Both the position numbers and the translations under genes were made by a program. From IMG/VR virus record IMGVR_UViG_2663762849_000009, positions 1 through 4,614 of that record: 4,614 nucleotides of DNA; one strand, 5' to 3'. Position 1 is the stretch's first letter. Each line of letters starts with the position of its first letter. A model generated the notes under the pieces. It was given only the letters and a program-made list of their open reading frames with translations. It was not told where the DNA came from and made no database searches. The stretch is from a virus. Its lineage: Duplodnaviria; Heunggongvirae; Uroviricota; Caudoviricetes. Positions 1-4,614 of the stretch are shown piece by piece.

Positions 1-171
1 GGATGAACCACCGGAGCCAGAACCTGAACCACCTCTGCCGGATGAGCCGCCGGAACCCGAGCCGGAGCCACCGCTACCGGATGAACCACCGGAGCCAGAA
101 CCTGAACCACCACCGGAACTGCCGCCGCCTGGGTTACCACCACCGGAACTGCCACCACCTGAGCTACCGCC
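1..171 (-). repeat. Tandemly repetitive Gly/Ser-coding tract inside the J-like CDS
   Basis: The minus-strand translation is almost entirely Gly and Ser (...GGGSSGGGNPGGGSSGGGSGSGSGGSSGSGGSGSGSGGSSGRGGSGSGSGGSS...). Positions 1-33 and 79-111 are an exact 33-nt direct repeat (ggatgaaccaccggagccagaacctgaaccacc). The 15-mer accaccggaactgcc recurs at 108-122 and 144-158. The tract continues beyond the left edge. Confidence 0.75.
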
Positions 172-2403
172 ATCCTCCTTACCATCGGAGAATGCAGGAT
201 CTACAGCAACTGGTTTCCAGTCGGCAGTACAAACTGTATCATCATCGGGATTACAAATAAGAGGATTACCGGTTGCCTCATAAATACACCCCTGCACATT
301 AACATAACGGGTCCCGTCATCACCTTTATAAACATCAGAAAAAGTCATACCATCAAGAACCGGACGAGAAAGACAAATCTCGTCAGTTGGCGGCTTATTA
401 TATTCAGGTGTCAAATCCCCCTCACCACCCTGAAAAGCAAGGGTGCAGGCTGTCCACTTTTGCTTCACCACCCTCGGCGTGTCCCATTTCGCCAGCGCCA
501 GATACTGGCTGTCAGCTGCGCTCACCTCCACCGTCAGGTGCTGCACTGCCGGTGGGATGACGCTGTTCAGGGTGCCTGACTGCGGCTCAAAGCGGGCTCC
601 GTTATCCACAATGGCTTCTTTTTCCGGTACGTGCTGCACCGCCGTGATGGCAAAGGTGCCGTCCGTGTTTTCCCGGATGGCCACACAGCGGAACAGGCGA
701 CGGCGCAGTGACGGCAGGGAGAGTCCCCACACCCCGTATGTCTCCACACCATCAGGCAGGGTACTGACCTGTATCCGGTCCGGCGCGGGGTGTGCGGTGA
801 TGTCCACACTCACCGGCTTACCGCTGCCGTTAATCAGGTTCACCGTCGATGCACCTGTCCCCGGAAGTGTCACTTCACGGTCCAGCGTCAGGGTGCGGGT
901 GGCAGCATCAATGGACAGGACACGTCCGCCGGTCAGGGTTCCGGCATAGTCGTTATCACAGATTTCAATGATGTCGCCGGGTGTGTGACGCAGCCCCTGT
1001 GACCCGAGTGTGAAATCCACCGTCTGCGTTTCCAGCAGTTCTGTCTTTATCACCCACAGCCCGGCACGGTGGGCCTGACCGCGACTGGTGCAGCCGAACG
1101 CATCCATCTTCAGCAGGTTGCGTCCGTAGCGCAGTATGGCTTCCGGGTCTTCCACCAGTTCCGTGGAGGTCTGCCAGCCGTTCTGCGGGTCGGTGTAATT
1201 CACCTCCACCGCCGTGTGCCGGTCCTTCAGGGCACTGAAGCTGTAGCGGAACCCCACGCCGTTATCATCCACCACCACATCGCTGTTGGTGTACGGCCAC
1301 ACCACATCCGACGTGCGGTCCTGAACGAACGTCAGCGTCTGGCCGTTCCATACCGGCATACAGCGCATCGCCGAGCAGAAATCACTGAGAACGTCCCACG
1401 CCTTACGCTGTTGTGCCAGGTACGCATTAAAGGTCATCCGCGGCTCTGTGCCCCCGAAACCATCCGGGACCGTCTGGTCGCAGTACTGCCCGATGGCATA
1501 CAGCGCCCACTTGTCCACATCCGCCGCCCCCAGACGTTTTCCCATCCCGTAGCGCGGGTGAGTCAGCATGTCCCACAGGCACCAGGCCGGGTTGTTGCTG
1601 TATGCCGGTTTCAGACTGCCGTCCCAGATACCGCTGTAGGTGCGTTTTTCCGGGTCATAGTTTGACGGCACCTGGATGATGCGACCGCGGATATGGTAGT
1701 TCACCGTCATCTGCTGACCACCGAACTGCTCCGCATCCACCTGCAGCCCCACAATCGCCGTGTTCGGGTAGCACTGTTTCACATCGATGATTTCGGTGTA
1801 CGATGACCAGAGTGTTCTGTTCTGCAACTGGTCCGTGGTGCTGTCCGCCGTCTCCCGGACCATCCGGATGTTAAAAGGACGGGGAGGCAGATTATCCAGA
1901 ATCACCGACGCCAGAAACTGCGAGGTGGTCTTGCCGTTAATGGTGACATCCTTTTCTGTCACCCAGTTACCGTTACGCTGTAACTGAATCAGCAGGCGGA
2001 CGGATGTCGGGTTTCGGTCACCCTTTGACGTGGTCTGCACCAGTGACTGCACCCCGAAGGTAACCCGCAGGCGGTCAATGTTCGCGGACGTAATGGTGCG
2101 CGTCACCGGTTTTGCCTTCGTCACTTCCACGCCCAGTACAGTTTCAGCTCCGGAGGACTCAAAGCCTTCCGGTGGTGTCTGCTCCTGCTCCCCGGCGCGC
2201 CAGACCGCCGTCACACCGTGTATCACGGGATTACCGTCCGTGTCCGTCAGCGGGGTTTTGTTCACCAGGATACTCTGCAGTCCCTTCACCGGGCCTTCTA
2301 TCGGTCCCTCACCAACCGCATCAATCACGCTCATCATCTGCGTGGATTTGAGATTATCCTTCGCCTCACGAGGCGTGTGTGCCTTACCGCCACCTTTTCC
2401 CAT
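1..2403 (-). CDS. J: Host specificity protein J / central tail fibre (lambda gpJ family), partial: N-terminal 801 codons in window, C-terminus beyond the left edge
   Basis: Hand translation of the minus strand from ATG at 2401-2403 gives MGKGGGKAHTPREAKDNLKSTQMMSVIDAVGEGPIEGPVKG..., which matches my recollection of lambda gpJ (MGKGSSKGHTPREAKDNLKSTQLLSVIDAISEGPIEGPV...). I checked the frame codon by codon from 2403 to 1 and found no stop. A GGAAGG Shine-Dalgarno lies 4 nt upstream (2408-2413, minus strand). J-like similarity continues to about ...HLTVEVSAADSQYLALAKWDTPRVVK (around nt 455-540), then diverges. It is absent from the ORF track probably because its stop lies outside the window. 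Confidence 0.9.
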   Translation of the reverse strand, partial: MGKGGGKAHTPREAKDNLKSTQMMSVIDAVGEGPIEGPVKGLQSILVNKTPLTDTDGNPVIHGVTAVWRAGEQEQTPPEGFESSGAETVLGVEVTKAKPVTRTITSANIDRLRVTFGVQSLVQTTSKGDRNPTSVRLLIQLQRNGNWVTEKDVTINGKTTSQFLASVILDNLPPRPFNIRMVRETADSTTDQLQNRTLWSSYTEIIDVKQCYPNTAIVGLQVDAEQFGGQQMTVNYHIRGRIIQVPSNYDPEKRTYSGIWDGSLKPAYSNNPAWCLWDMLTHPRYGMGKRLGAADVDKWALYAIGQYCDQTVPDGFGGTEPRMTFNAYLAQQRKAWDVLSDFCSAMRCMPVWNGQTLTFVQDRTSDVVWPYTNSDVVVDDNGVGFRYSFSALKDRHTAVEVNYTDPQNGWQTSTELVEDPEAILRYGRNLLKMDAFGCTSRGQAHRAGLWVIKTELLETQTVDFTLGSQGLRHTPGDIIEICDNDYAGTLTGGRVLSIDAATRTLTLDREVTLPGTGASTVNLINGSGKPVSVDITAHPAPDRIQVSTLPDGVETYGVWGLSLPSLRRRLFRCVAIRENTDGTFAITAVQHVPEKEAIVDNGARFEPQSGTLNSVIPPAVQHLTVEVSAADSQYLALAKWDTPRVVKQKWTACTLAFQGGEGDLTPEYNKPPTDEICLSRPVLDGMTFSDVYKGDDGTRYVNVQGCIYEATGNPLICNPDDDTVCTADWKPVAVDPAFSDGKEDGGSSGGGSSGGGNPGGGSSGGGSGSGSGGSSGSGGSGSGSGGSSGRGGSGSGSGGSS

Positions 2404-2506
2404 ACAGCCTTCCCCTGAATAAATTAACCGCCACTTGCCATTCCGTACAGAAGTCGGATATCCTTCGCCCGAAAAGCATGAAACACATTTCTGCCATGCT
2501 AAAGAG

Positions 2507-2541
2507 AAACCCCGGTATCAGCAGATACCGGGGTTTTCTTT
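2507..2541 (+). terminator. Intrinsic (rho-independent) terminator hairpin, possibly bidirectional
   Basis: Perfect 12-bp inverted repeat aaaccccggtat (2507-2518) / ataccggggttt (2525-2536) with loop cagcag, followed by ttttcttt on the plus strand. On the minus strand the stem is followed by a weaker T-rich stretch (tttctcttt). Confidence 0.6.
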
Positions 2542-2608
2542 CATGTCCACCGATAATCCTGTTGGTAAAAACCGGTAATGGCATAAAAATTCTGAATATC
2601 TTCACATT

Positions 2609-2636
2609 TTCACAAACTGACTGTGGCGCGTATAAT
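2609..2636 (+). promoter_or_regulatory. Sigma70-like promoter: -35 TTCACA (2609-2614), 16-nt spacer, -10 TATAAT (2631-2636)
   Basis: Consensus -10 hexamer and a 5/6 match to the -35 hexamer with near-optimal spacing, in an AT-rich intergenic region. It points rightward, antisense to the tail operon. Confidence 0.4.
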
Positions 2637-2703
2637 TTCGCTGCGTTAGTGTTTTTTTGCCCGAGTAACAAAAACAACTCCTTAACTCTAATCTTTGTCT
2701 GTC

Positions 2704-2737
2704 CCCGCAGCTCCGCGATCACTGCGGGATTTTTTTA
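2704..2737 (+). terminator. Intrinsic terminator-like hairpin plus T-tract on the plus strand
   Basis: Stem cccgcag (2704-2710) / ctgcggg (2722-2728) with an 11-nt loop, followed by seven T (2730-2736). It lies just downstream of the I stop codon in the I-J spacer. Confidence 0.5.
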
Positions 2738-2743
2738 TTCTTT

Positions 2744-3424
2744 TTACCCCTGCCGCCCGATAACCACGACCTTTCCGCACCCGCCTTCATCACGGGTACT
2801 GATGTCCTGGGATATACGGCGGGAGCCAACCAGCATTTCCCCGTAAGGCACCGGCATCGGGTTACCCTGGGCAATCATGTTGTCCAGTGACGAAAAATAC
2901 GTGTTCTGTCTGCCGTTATCCGTTGCGCGGTAATCCGGTGTTTTTGCCTTCGGGGCCAGCATCTGGGCCACACCACCCAGAATCATGCTGGCCCCCAGTG
3001 AAAACAGCATCGTGGTGGCAGAAAAACCGCCGGCACTCAGGGCTGTACCCCATAACGCCATCGAGGCACCGGCAGTGAGGAAAGAGCCCACGATGGCTGC
3101 CGCCCCCAGCACAATCTGCAGTCCACCCTTTCCGGCCCCGGCCAGTCGCGGCACAATATGGATAACCGTTCCCTCACTCAGTGGTTCGTGAAGGCGGGCA
3201 TACACCGCCTCCGGTGCCGTATCCTCACCGGCAATGCGTATCTGGTACCAGCCTTCGTTCATCTGACGGCGAAAGCCCGGCACCTGCATCGACAGTGCGC
3301 GGATGGCTTCCGCTGCCGTGTTCACATACAGGCTGAGGCGGCGGCCAAATCGTTGTAAATCCCCGTGAAGGCAGATGCGTGCCAGTGGCGGTGACGCCAG
3401 ACAGAATGCGTTCGTCGTTGCCAT
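2744..3424 (-). CDS. I: Tail assembly protein I (lambda gpI family)
   Basis: The 226-aa ORF (MATTNAFCLASPPLARICLHGDLQRFGRRL...TDNGRQNTYFSSLDNMIAQGNPMPVPYGEMLVGSRRISQDISTRDEGGCGKVVVIGRQG) closely resembles my recollection of lambda gpI (223 aa), including the ARICLYGDLQRFGRR and TDNGKQNTYFSSLDNM blocks. Its start overlaps the 3' end of the K reading frame by 103 nt, as in lambda. TAA stop at 2744-2746. Confidence 0.9.
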   Translation of the reverse strand: MATTNAFCLASPPLARICLHGDLQRFGRRLSLYVNTAAEAIRALSMQVPGFRRQMNEGWYQIRIAGEDTAPEAVYARLHEPLSEGTVIHIVPRLAGAGKGGLQIVLGAAAIVGSFLTAGASMALWGTALSAGGFSATTMLFSLGASMILGGVAQMLAPKAKTPDYRATDNGRQNTYFSSLDNMIAQGNPMPVPYGEMLVGSRRISQDISTRDEGGCGKVVVIGRQG

Positions 3425-3798
3425 TTTTCGGAATACCTCTCCCGTTTACTCAGTTGTTCAGGCAGATGGTGAAGCAGCTCACCGTTGCCGCAGTAAATGG
3501 CGGCATGGTTCGGTACCGAAGCACCAAAGCAGCACAGCAGAATATCGCCCGCCTGTGCAGAGGACAGGGGCACCCGGTAAAAGCCCGTTTCCTCCATATT
3601 GTCCAGGTACAGGTTCTGGCCGTTGCGCCACCAGTCATCCTCGCGATGAAAATCCGGCATTTCAGTCCCCGCCAGATGATAAGCATCCCGGAACAGCGTG
3701 TAACAGTCCGTCACCCCGTGCGCAAAGCGCCGTCCGGTCAGGTGCGGCACACAGCGGAATTTGTGAATGTCACCCCGGCAGACCAGCCACCAGGGCAC
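3322..3798 (-). CDS. K: Tail tip assembly protein K (lambda gpK family), C-terminal NlpC/P60-like portion; frame separated from the N-terminal portion
   Basis: Translation (V)PWWLVCRGDIHKFRCVPHLTGRRFAHGVTDCYTLFRDAYHLAGTEMPDFHREDDWWRNGQNLYLDN...LLCCFGASVPNHAAIYCG... matches the gpK C-terminal region as I recall it, with the Cys/His residues expected of an NlpC/P60 peptidase. The track start is a GTG at 3796-3798, preceded two codons upstream by an in-frame TAA, so this is the continuation of K in a different frame rather than an independent gene. Confidence 0.75.
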   Translation of the reverse strand: MPWWLVCRGDIHKFRCVPHLTGRRFAHGVTDCYTLFRDAYHLAGTEMPDFHREDDWWRNGQNLYLDNMEETGFYRVPLSSAQAGDILLCCFGASVPNHAAIYCGNGELLHHLPEQLSKRERYSEKWQRRTHSVWRHRHWHASAFTGIYNDLAAASACM

Positions 3799-4054
3799 TC
3801 TTTATCTGCAGCCGCCGGTCCGCCTCGCTCAGCCAGGGCAGACCACCGGGATGACTGTGGACCAGCGCCACAATCTCCCCCTGCATCTCTGCCCGCAGCC
3901 AGTCTTCCGGCGCAATACGAAAATACGCCTCCGGCTCTGCGGAAATATTCACACAAGGGATATACCGCTCCCCCTCCGGCGTTCTCACCACGAAGCCGCA
4001 CGACTCCGCAGGCGCACACCGCCGGGCATGTGCCAATATATTGCTATAGAGCAT
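3770..4054 (-). CDS. K: Tail tip assembly protein K (lambda gpK family), N-terminal MPN/JAMM domain portion; ends prematurely at TGA 3770-3772
   Basis: Translation MLYSNILAHARRCAPAESCGFVVRTPEGERYIPCVNISAEPEAYFRIAPEDWLRAEMQGEIVALVHSHPGGLPWLSEADRRLQIKS... contains an exact JAMM motif (E...HSHPGGLPWLSEAD, i.e. HxHx7Sx2D). I place the start at ATG 4052-4054, which has an AGGAG Shine-Dalgarno (4061-4065, minus strand), rather than the track's ATG at 4091-4093, which sits inside the terminator hairpin. Confidence 0.75.
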   Translation of the reverse strand: MLYSNILAHARRCAPAESCGFVVRTPEGERYIPCVNISAEPEAYFRIAPEDWLRAEMQGEIVALVHSHPGGLPWLSEADRRLQIKSALVAGLPG

Positions 4055-4066
4055 GAGAACTCCTGA

Positions 4067-4090
4067 TAAAAAACCCAGCCGAGGCTGGGT
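4067..4090 (-). terminator. Intrinsic terminator downstream of the 4109..4531 ORF and immediately upstream of the K ribosome-binding site
   Basis: Inverted repeat acccagc (4073-4079) / gctgggt (4084-4090) with a 4-nt loop. On the minus strand the hairpin is followed by TTTTTTAT (complement of 4066-4073). Confidence 0.6.
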
Positions 4091-4108
4091 CATTTCGTTG
4101 GTAATCTG

Positions 4109-4531
4109 TTAGTAGTGATGCAGTGAAGGCGGCAACTCTTTGCTCTTAAGCCTTACCCATGCGGAAAGATTCGTTGGTCCATCTGGCTCATTAATATCAA
4201 CATCTCGTGTGTGATTGATTAAAACGTCTCTCGCCATTCCAATAACATACGAGAACTCATGGCCGTAGTTGTAGCACCTGTCAGAATAGTTCGATTGAAT
4301 TTGCTTTAGCGCCGGATACAGTTCGCGGAATAATGCCTGTGAGCGGTTGGCATAATCCCATAGCCATACAAGGCTGTTTGCTTCTTTTGCGGAAAGCTCG
4401 TTGGTTTTCTTCTCTTGTTTGCCAATGAACTCACCTTCAAGCACTACCCTGTGGATGTACTCTACGGCCAGCGGGATTTGTTCAATTGAAAGTTCATCAA
4501 TGCTGTCAATACCAAAACGCTGATGAACCAT
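4109..4531 (-). CDS. Hypothetical protein, function unknown (AT-rich moron-like ORF upstream of K)
   Basis: A 140-codon ORF on the same strand as the tail genes. My hand counts of 60-nt stretches give roughly 40-43% GC here against roughly 60% in the J gene. An intrinsic terminator follows it immediately (4067-4090). I recognise no family from the sequence. No obvious Shine-Dalgarno precedes the ATG at 4529-4531. Confidence 0.55.
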
Positions 4532-4555
4532 ATTGTATGCATCGTCATAGCGAAG

Positions 4556-4614
4556 TCATTTCTTTCCTACCAGCATGTTTACTGCATCGCGTAGAGGTGT
4601 GCGTTCAGCTACTG
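4556..4614 (-). CDS. Possible 3' end of an upstream ORF entering from the right edge (last 18 codons, ...VAERTPLRDAVNMLVGKK, then TGA)
   Basis: This is the only minus-strand frame open from the window edge to 4559, and it is the same frame as the 4109..4531 ORF, separated from it by TGA at 4556-4558. Eighteen stop-free codons is weak evidence on its own. Confidence 0.25.
   Translation of the reverse strand, partial: VAERTPLRDAVNMLVGKK

Follow-up and report, generated by a model that had tools for sequence, protein, structure and literature searches.

Prophage small RNAs related to the locus

PasB is one of five "pathogenicity-associated" prophage small RNAs (sRNAs) that were identified by Hfq RIL-seq (ligation of interacting RNAs followed by their sequencing) in enteropathogenic Escherichia coli (EPEC) O127:H6 strain E2348/69, where it carries the identifier E2348CN_0006 (Pearl Mizrahi et al., 2021, PMC8550237). 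It is annotated as an 83-nt RNA on the minus strand of NC_011601 (1466343–1466261) in prophage PP6 and was seen on a Northern blot; the probe is AATCCCGCAGTGATCGCGGAGCT (PMC8550237, table S6). Here, we analysed a 4,614-nt stretch of viral DNA (Caudoviricetes; positions 1 to 4,614 of IMG/VR record IMGVR_UViG_2663762849_000009), referred to below as the window. Between its tail genes I and J lies a promoter–terminator unit which, judged by its sequence, is a copy of the already described PasB sRNA gene in the form of a seed variant.

In an hfq deletion strain, PasB shows log2 fold changes of −6.8 and −2.4 in two growth conditions, and its level is higher in overnight static cultures in lysogeny broth (LB) than in exponential cultures in Dulbecco's modified Eagle medium (DMEM) (PMC8550237). 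In the PasB rows of table S3 considered here (all of the nonactivating and part of the activating set), the RNA forms ~40 significant pairs and is always RNA2 of the chimera, as expected for an sRNA. The portion of the data considered puts ~76–78 thousand PasB fragments on Hfq in LB (PMC8550237). Partners in the same rows include a PP9 gene (71 chimeras), the napF 5' untranslated region (70), map (67) and yhhX (57), followed by the nlpD–rpoS region (56), hflX (55) and fabR (50); bfpB, bfpI, ler, perB, espC, cesD2, raiA, tolC, caiF, gshA and rplX are also among the partners. The function of PasB was left to future work by its authors. The distribution of the Pas sRNAs has been surveyed in a preprint (Zhu, Shabalina and Storz, 2026, bioRxiv 10.64898/2026.05.13.724894), which proposes, from conservation only, that the PasB seed lies just upstream of the terminator. 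Neither publication discusses the promoter, the transcription start or an antisense role of PasB, and the words promoter, CRP and antisense are absent from the preprint.

Related observations come from enterohaemorrhagic E. coli (EHEC). EcOnc22, EcOnc23 and EcOnc24 were reported as homologous Hfq-CRAC (cross-linking and analysis of cDNA) peaks in the Sakai prophages Sp15 (Stx1), Sp14 and Sp11 (Tree et al., 2014, PMC4104026, table S2). EcOnc22 runs at ~85 nt on a Northern blot and is destabilised without hfq (PMC4104026), and a 2021 review listed the function of EcOnc22–24 as unknown (PMC7873438). EHEC homologues were stated for PasA and PasD, not for PasB (PMC8550237), and the EcOnc RNAs are unmentioned in the preprint (10.64898/2026.05.13.724894). 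AgvB and AsxR, from EHEC prophages, resemble the PasB family in that they are Hfq-binding moron sRNAs whose 3' scaffold is conserved while the targeting part varies, and in that they contain A-R-N motifs. They differ in being 51–60 nt long, in lying downstream of PR' next to stx or a moron site rather than in the tail operon, and in acting on sRNAs rather than on the ribosome-binding sites of mRNAs; the sequences are unrelated. The combination that marks their family, a ~42-nt conserved 3' region, a length of 51–60 nt and a position downstream of PR', is not found in the window unit.

A PasB-type unit in the I–J spacer

The tail genes of the window all lie on the minus strand (ORF, open reading frame, list and Pfam). 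With the J start codon at 2403 and the I stop codon at 2744–2746, the I–J spacer spans 2404–2743 and measures 340 bp, compared with 60 bp in phage lambda. The predicted RNA falls wholly within this spacer and on the strand opposite the tail genes, as the preliminary description of the sequence had proposed; it ends 8 nt from the I stop codon, and its predicted start is 240 nt from the J start codon. By comparison with lambda, the unit is extra DNA between genes I and J with its own promoter and terminator, which are the hallmarks of a moron.

The reverse complement of the PasB Northern probe matches the window at 23 of 23 bases (2709–2731), a single occurrence where none is expected by chance. 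The E2348/69 locus aligns with window positions 2583–2760 and is unrelated to the left of 2583. Along annotated PasB (NC_011601 1466261–1466343), 75 of the 83 positions are identical in the window; the differences, four substitutions and a 4-nt deletion (UUCA), all fall within 2685–2695. Identity is complete in the −35 element, the terminator and the 5' half of the RNA, and the −10 region has a single difference, at the base directly upstream of the hexamer. The genomic setting is also shared, as PasB lies between a tail assembly gene (end 1466255) and gpJ (start 1466496) on the opposite strand. The segments from the promoter to J are unrelated: the window has 179 bp with a 14-bp hairpin, and E2348/69 ~90 bp with a different hairpin. 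The earlier suggestion of an independent plus-strand sRNA, possibly moron-encoded, agrees with what has been published for the near-identical E2348/69 unit (PMC8550237). An Rfam scan of the entire window at E ≤ 1 returned no family; because PasB has no Rfam model, this empty result says nothing about function.

Distribution and sequence types

Of 5426 complete E. coli genomes, 1649 contain the 381-bp spacer of the window type. When the 176-bp unit alone served as query in a sensitive search, 147 phage records were obtained, 127 of them at only 60–80% identity and most of them Stx1a, Stx2a and Stx2c converting phages, and scans of IMG/VR by the terminator or promoter block gave >160 loci. This recurrence, with promoter, body and terminator in register, places the unit far beyond chance. 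After removal of duplicates, 46 distinct RNA sequences remained; 26 representatives were aligned and sorted by eye into at least seven sequence types, from lambdoid and Stx phages. Type C (Stx2a/BP-4795-like) on its own was matched in 758 genomes, at as many as 10 places in a single genome.

All types share an upstream block (GAATAAAAnTTCTGAAnnTCTTCACATT), a −10 element (nATAAT or TATCAT in nearly all, GATAAA in locus L029), a 5' leader GCGUUA (nearly invariant across types; GCAUUA in the Sakai units) and a run of 5–9 U. These are followed by a GC-containing spacer of 8–14 nt, an A-rich run with two to five consecutive A-R-N triplets (by inspection), UCC, a nearly invariant AAUCUU, the stem CCCGCAG/CUGCGGG and U6–8. 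The mean majority fraction per segment is 0.97 for AAUCUU, 0.90 for the U-run, 0.88 for the leader, 0.85 for CUCCUU and 0.82 for the A-run, and 0.60–0.75 for the hairpin loop and the seed flanks. The variable segments are the hairpin loop, the bases flanking AAUCUU and the terminator loop.

A PasB 20-mer, GCCCGAGTAACAAAAACAAC, also occurs in an Idiomarina metagenome-assembled genome (L093:1731–1750), the sole match of a scan that covered one genome per species. With no PasB features around it, it was set aside as a chance match.

Predicted transcript and terminator

The predicted primary transcript, a PasB-family sRNA, runs from 2643 to 2736 on the plus strand. Its start, placed near 2643–2645 in the preliminary description, is inferred from a −10 element ending at 2636, and its 94 nt lie within the 90–95 nt anticipated there. 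The segment equivalent to annotated PasB, by alignment to E2348/69, is 2658–2736 (plus strand), 79 nt in this copy. Candidate Hfq contacts lie at 2652–2677 and comprise a U7 run (2652–2658), a GC-containing spacer (2659–2666) and an A-rich run, with four consecutive A-R-N triplets (AAC AAA AAC AAC) at 2667–2678. The single-stranded candidate seed region, CUCCUUAACUCUAAUCUUUGUCUGUC (2678–2703), contains an anti-Shine-Dalgarno-like CUCCUU and the near-invariant AAUCUU at 2690–2695.

The RNA ends in an intrinsic terminator (2704–2736, plus strand) which is the expected binding site for the proximal face of Hfq. The predicted hairpin was found as described: CCCGCAG at 2704–2710 pairs with CTGCGGG at 2722–2728 to form a 7-bp stem with an 11-nt loop, followed by A and T7 (2730–2736; U7 in the RNA). 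A terminator scan gave a shorter, 6-pair version at 2712–2728. The T-run follows the hairpin on the plus strand only, so the hairpin terminates only plus-strand transcripts. The stem is identical in 25 of the 26 variants while the loop ranges from ~2 to 17 nt, which is good evidence that the stem-loop itself matters. RNAalifold on the 26 variants recovered the terminator helix only, with no covariation there. In a possible, weak 5' hairpin between the U-run and the A-run, 84–89% of cells were paired, compared with 72–89% for the 5' hairpin as drawn in the minimum-energy fold of the window; there is one compensated pair, the result is not above the shuffle control, and separate folds of the variants disagree.

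The earlier view that the unit contains no convincing ORF holds across the family, as none of the 26 variants has a plus-strand ORF of at least 12 codons; in 11 of them, including the window copy, there is no such ORF on either strand. A 112-codon minus-strand ORF across the region had been dismissed as spurious, and it indeed crosses sequence that is replaced or carries indels in related phages. Indels of 1, 2 and 4 nt throughout the unit, together with the lack of a common ORF, indicate that the unit is non-coding.

Promoter and upstream box

The sigma-70 promoter that had been read from the sequence (2609–2636, plus strand) consists of −35 TTCACA (2609–2614), a 16-nt spacer and −10 TATAAT (2631–2636). 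It matches the consensus at 11 of 12 positions and ranks top among six promoter-like sites in the window, where shuffled sequences give 2.7 ± 1.6. In types C and E, the −35 element is degenerate (TTCTGT or TTCCGG).

Directly upstream of the −35 element, a conserved A/T-rich block (2583–2608, plus strand) carries TCTGA-N6-TCACA, a putative CRP/FNR-type site or UP element. In the window the sequence is TCTGA-ATATCT-TCACA (2591–2606), which matches the CRP core TGTGA-N6-TCACA at 9 of 10 positions, with a perfect right half-site including the TTT flank. Both half-sites are invariant in all sequence types, including those found without this block as search key, and the N6 between them varies (ATATCT, ATTTCT, AATTCT, AACTCT).

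PasB levels are greater in stationary LB, which lacks glucose, than in DMEM, the opposite of Spot 42. Spot 42 is repressed by cyclic AMP (cAMP)–CRP. The invariant half-sites, variable N6, degenerate −35 elements and LB/DMEM pattern fit activation by cAMP–CRP, although the two culture conditions differ in many respects besides glucose, which weighs against this inference. We consider putative control of the sRNA promoter by CRP or an FNR-type factor possible, yet on balance rather doubtful.

Candidate seed region and targets

Complementarity to known targets was assessed in 12 RIL-seq target regions of PasB, picked for their narrow coordinates, using k-mer counts and seed-restricted duplexes with shuffle controls. 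In ten of the 12 regions, the RIL-seq site overlaps or directly adjoins a start codon; the genes are napF, caiF, gshA, tolC, ydbJ, raiA, rpoS, yijD (following fabR), yrdD (following smg) and the one that follows E2348C_2648. The targets contain 19 reverse complements of 8-mers of E2348/69 PasB, compared with 5.0 ± 3.1 in dinucleotide shuffles, and 41 of its 7-mers, compared with 17.6 ± 5.3. All but one of the 19 8-mer matches fall in the PasB stretch CUCCUUCACAUUGAUCUUCAUUUG, between the A-run and the terminator. By inspection, complementary sites are UCAAUGUGAAG in napF, AAUGUGAAGGA in yijD, AAAUGAAGAU in rpoS and UGAAGAUCA in ydbJ; the site in tolC, CAAAUGAAGA, spans the tolC AUG. The E2348/69 seed has a mean duplex energy of −20.6 kcal/mol, compared with −17.6 ± 0.9 for shuffled seeds, and none of 200 shuffles reaches the observed value. 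This clustering of complementarity supports the seed position guessed in the preprint and, taken with the target sites, suggests that PasB may repress translation at ribosome-binding sites. Duplexes predicted between the whole RNA body and the targets were discarded, as they were unrealistic end-to-end pairings with huge loops.

The window allele gives different values. It has a single 8-mer match to the same 12 targets, and its seed duplex energy is −14.5, with 139 of 200 of its own shuffles at least as low; by these measures, seed and predicted target set are not those of E2348/69 PasB. Aligned to PasB, the window seed reads …CUCCUUAACUCUAAUC----UUUG…, in which both CUUCA repeats are gone and only AAUCUU is kept. 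The low 8-mer count and a duplex energy no better than that of shuffles mark the window copy as a seed variant rather than an equivalent of PasB. Several IMG/VR contigs and E. coli G1/2 carry this allele as well, or a form shorter by one U, and this recurrence shows that it is not a sequencing artefact. The window copy is probably a functional variant with a shifted target range.

Probable relation to the EHEC EcOnc RNAs

The I–J spacers of Sp15 and Sp11 each contain a complete type-E unit, and in NC_002695.2 the coordinates of EcOnc22 and EcOnc24 fall in these spacers, on the strand opposite the tail genes. The predicted Sakai units are L191:937–1027, equal to NC_002695.2 2902836–2902926 (EcOnc22), and L193, equal to 2166817–2166907 (EcOnc24). 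At both loci, the published peaks are found 122–123 bp leftward of where the RNA is predicted to start. For AgvB1, an RNA of known sequence, the published coordinates differ from those in NC_002695.2 by ~139–146 bp; once an offset of about +140 bp is applied, each peak falls within its predicted RNA and begins ~18 nt downstream of the start. Both units share with the window the I–J junction, the upstream box, an nATAAT −10 element, the U-run, the A-run, AAUCUU and the terminator with U7. They differ in having only ~70–74% identity, with changes in the −35 element, the hairpin loop and the seed flanks (…CUCCAUAACGUUAAUCUUCAUCGUUCUCU…). With moderate confidence, we assign EcOnc22 and EcOnc24 to the PasB family; EcOnc23 is grouped with it solely because it is listed as their homologue in the published table.

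Proposed function and alternative explanations

We consider it likely that the interval forms an autonomous gene for a PasB-family sRNA, which sits as a moron between tail genes I and J in a lambdoid prophage and is read in the direction opposite to the tail operon. The published basis for this reading is that the E2348/69 homologue, and probably EcOnc22 and EcOnc24 of Sakai, give an RNA of ~83–85 nt that needs Hfq to accumulate. In the lysogen, with the late operon silent, the unit's own promoter would drive synthesis of the RNA, and its transcription may respond to cAMP–CRP or a related factor through the conserved TCTGA-N6-TCACA box. Hfq would bind through the U-tail of the terminator and the U-rich and A-R-N-rich 5' half, and the single-stranded stretch from the A-run to the terminator would pair in trans, mostly with ribosome-binding sites and start codons, where the most likely effect would be repression of translation. 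The window copy would keep the scaffold and the AAUCUU core; since the flanking seed bases differ from those of E2348/69 PasB, the mRNAs under its control are probably a different set that overlaps in part. Four points go beyond the published accounts and are offered as hypotheses: where the seed lies, how it differs between alleles, the probable identity of EcOnc22/24, and the conserved CRP-like box.

Several points weigh against this account, in whole or in part. RNA detection and Hfq dependence come from homologues and not from the window strain or its variant. The authors' own motif search found no common motif among PasB targets (PMC8550237), and the proposed seed position derives from 12 chosen targets and from thermodynamic and k-mer statistics, not from mutational tests. 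Covariation support for the 5' hairpin was not found among the 26 variants. The mapping of the EcOnc RNAs hangs on a coordinate offset calibrated at one locus, AgvB1. The CRP-like box is not significant as a single match in 4.6 kb (one in the window, 0.18 expected, and 35 of 200 shuffles also hold one). For a start at 2643 its centre lies at about −44.5, compared with the canonical −41.5 or −61.5 and 3 bp off the class II position, and the upstream block, A/T-rich at −60 to −41, could instead be a UP element. Finally, the published 5' end of PasB corresponds to window position 2658, the last U of U7 and 15 nt downstream of the start predicted from the promoter. The RNA would accordingly be 79 or 94 nt long, the shorter form reflecting either a processing product or an imprecise coverage estimate; the annotated PasB start was derived from RNA-seq coverage (PMC8550237). 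On this last point, no −10 or −35 hexamers plausible for a start at 2658 were found by eye in the window sequence, and the 15-nt leader (GCGUUAGUG…) ranks with the most strongly conserved segments of the family, G1, U5 and A6 being invariant. The Sakai homologue measures ~85 nt on a Northern blot, compared with 91 nt predicted from promoter to U-run. For these reasons we prefer the view that the primary transcript begins at ~2643 and is perhaps shortened within the U-run.

The position of the unit raises the question of a role in cis. In lytic growth, the RNA could pair with the I–J spacer of the late transcript, or convergent transcription could collide, so that cleavage, stability or J expression would be altered. 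Over ~94 nt between I and J, the operon transcript is perfectly complementary to the RNA, and in all sequence types the cassette sits at one junction, 8 nt from the I stop codon, a fixed position that such a role would explain. However, the overlap is confined to the non-coding I–J spacer of the operon transcript and includes no coding sequence or ribosome-binding site, and the distance to the J start is 240 nt in the window and ~140 nt in E2348/69 and JLK-2012. Phage lambda manages with a 60-bp spacer that has no such unit. In the published data considered, Hfq in uninduced cells carries abundant PasB, which has many partners in trans (PMC8550237), and the PasB rows of table S3, as delimited above, hold no tail-operon partner. 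A cis-antisense function is therefore unlikely as the main explanation, and it could run alongside a trans role.

A different use of the 5' half would make the RNA an anti-sRNA or Hfq sponge in the manner of AgvB and AsxR, in which the A-R-N- and CA-rich AACAAAAACAAC titrates a core sRNA such as GcvB or fills the distal face of Hfq. Binding to the distal face has a precedent in AgvB, the window RNA has its four consecutive A-R-N triplets, and, by inspection, two to five are kept in every type despite sequence change; heavy occupancy of Hfq in stationary phase, as seen in the data considered (PMC8550237), would fit as well. This reading is nevertheless improbable. The target complementarity maps to sequence downstream of the A-run rather than to the run itself, the RNA does not resemble AgvB or AsxR in sequence, and no Rfam match to RF02702 or RF02703 was obtained. 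The PasB rows of table S3 considered contain no gcvB–pasB chimera, and the sole partner there near an sRNA gene is the intergenic region next to pasA. AgvB itself, a GcvB mimic suggested by the CA-rich run, was rejected because of its PR' location, its unrelated sequence and the missing gcvB chimera in those rows. It is less probable still that the interval is no RNA gene at all, and that its hairpins serve as insulators or terminators of the tail operon or one strand encodes a short protein. Some annotators call a hypothetical protein in the I–J spacer, and a second hairpin does lie between the promoter and J. Against this stand the tolerance of indels of 1, 2, 4 and more nt with no conserved ORF, a T-run that follows the hairpin on the plus strand only, and the discrete RNA found experimentally for two homologues.

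These results leave the basic picture unchanged, in that the element belongs to a known class of Hfq-dependent sRNAs encoded by prophages. Raw sequence alone was enough here to locate a real sRNA gene with experimental validation, which speaks for screening phage operons for paired promoters and terminators. In stationary-phase EPEC, PasB-type RNAs rank with the most abundant ligands of Hfq. PasB contacts virulence mRNAs (bfp, map, ler, espC) as well as core mRNAs (the rpoS leader, tolC, napF). Its function should now be easier to test, as a likely seed has been placed, natural alleles differ there, and the EPEC and EHEC RNAs apparently form one family. We tentatively extend this to a wider proposal, which is quite possible though somewhat less probable than its opposite. 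In it, PasB of EPEC, EcOnc22/24 of EHEC and the window variant would be alleles of one sRNA cassette, located at the I–J junction of lambdoid and Stx phages, with a fixed scaffold and an exchangeable seed; each would bring Hfq-dependent repression to a different set of host ribosome-binding sites and be switched on in glucose-poor stationary phase. The scaffold would consist of the CRP-like box, the GCGUUA leader, the U-run and A-R-N module, the AAUCUU core and the invariant terminator stem. If this is true, a strain would hold a combinatorial set of seeds, given up to 10 places per type per genome.

Neighbouring genes and further features

A 14-bp GC-rich hairpin (GAAACCCCGGTATC…GATACCGGGGTTTT) occupies 2506–2537, in the interval from the PasB promoter to J, and has T-rich runs on either strand. 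The 47-bp segment that contains it (2493–2539) is exactly absent from two IMG/VR loci (e.g. L032) and is bounded by a TTTCT repeat, so that it looks like a separate small insertion or deletion. The hairpin might terminate a second short plus-strand RNA, for which there is a weak promoter at 2435–2464. Most other phages have a different hairpin in the promoter-to-J spacer, CAGGCAYCC-CGGA-GGRTGCCTG (L002:2425–2460, minus strand; L168–L177 at ~350–395; L191:843–866), with a compensatory change from C:G to T:A between loci. In E2348/69, a T-rich run follows this alternative hairpin on the tail-gene strand, and it may be a terminator or insulator ahead of J.

The genes of the window are all encoded on the minus strand. 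Tail assembly gene I (3424–2744) matches Pfam Lambda_tail_I (PF06805, E = 2.8e-16). Tail gene K (4093–3322), with JAB and NlpC/P60 domains, is split into two overlapping frames, JAB at 4093–3770 and NlpC/P60 at 3798–3322. Its homologue in E. coli G1/2 is a single coding sequence of 744 bp, from which we conclude that K of the window is frameshifted near 3770–3798, as a pseudogene or through a sequencing error. Adjoining K, a 140-codon antirepressor-like ORF (4531–4109) carries the P22 antirepressor C-terminal domain (Pfam PF10548, E = 7.5e-29), and an 8-bp hairpin with a T-run follows it at 4091–4072 on the minus strand. Related genomes have at this position a protein annotated as Ant-like or as carrying the P22AR C-terminal domain, once with sodC too, which suggests another moron site in the tail operon.

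Tail tip gene J is present with its 5' part (1–2403, running off the left end; Pfam FNIII-A_GpJ, Phage-tail_3 and Ig_J). No full-length match to the window was found among the complete E. coli genomes; the best has 95.9% identity across 86%. The best whole-window matches begin only at position 463, which marks the left-end segment of J as unusual. Within that segment, J residues 667–712 match the filamentous-phage coat protein A (g3p) family (PF05357, E = 1.5e-8). The g3p-like part corresponds to window positions 1–471 (J residues ~645–801), and the match is followed by Gly/Ser-rich tandem repeats with periods of 39 and 30 nt (window 1–172). A g3p-like domain with a glycine linker within a lambdoid J may deserve separate attention.

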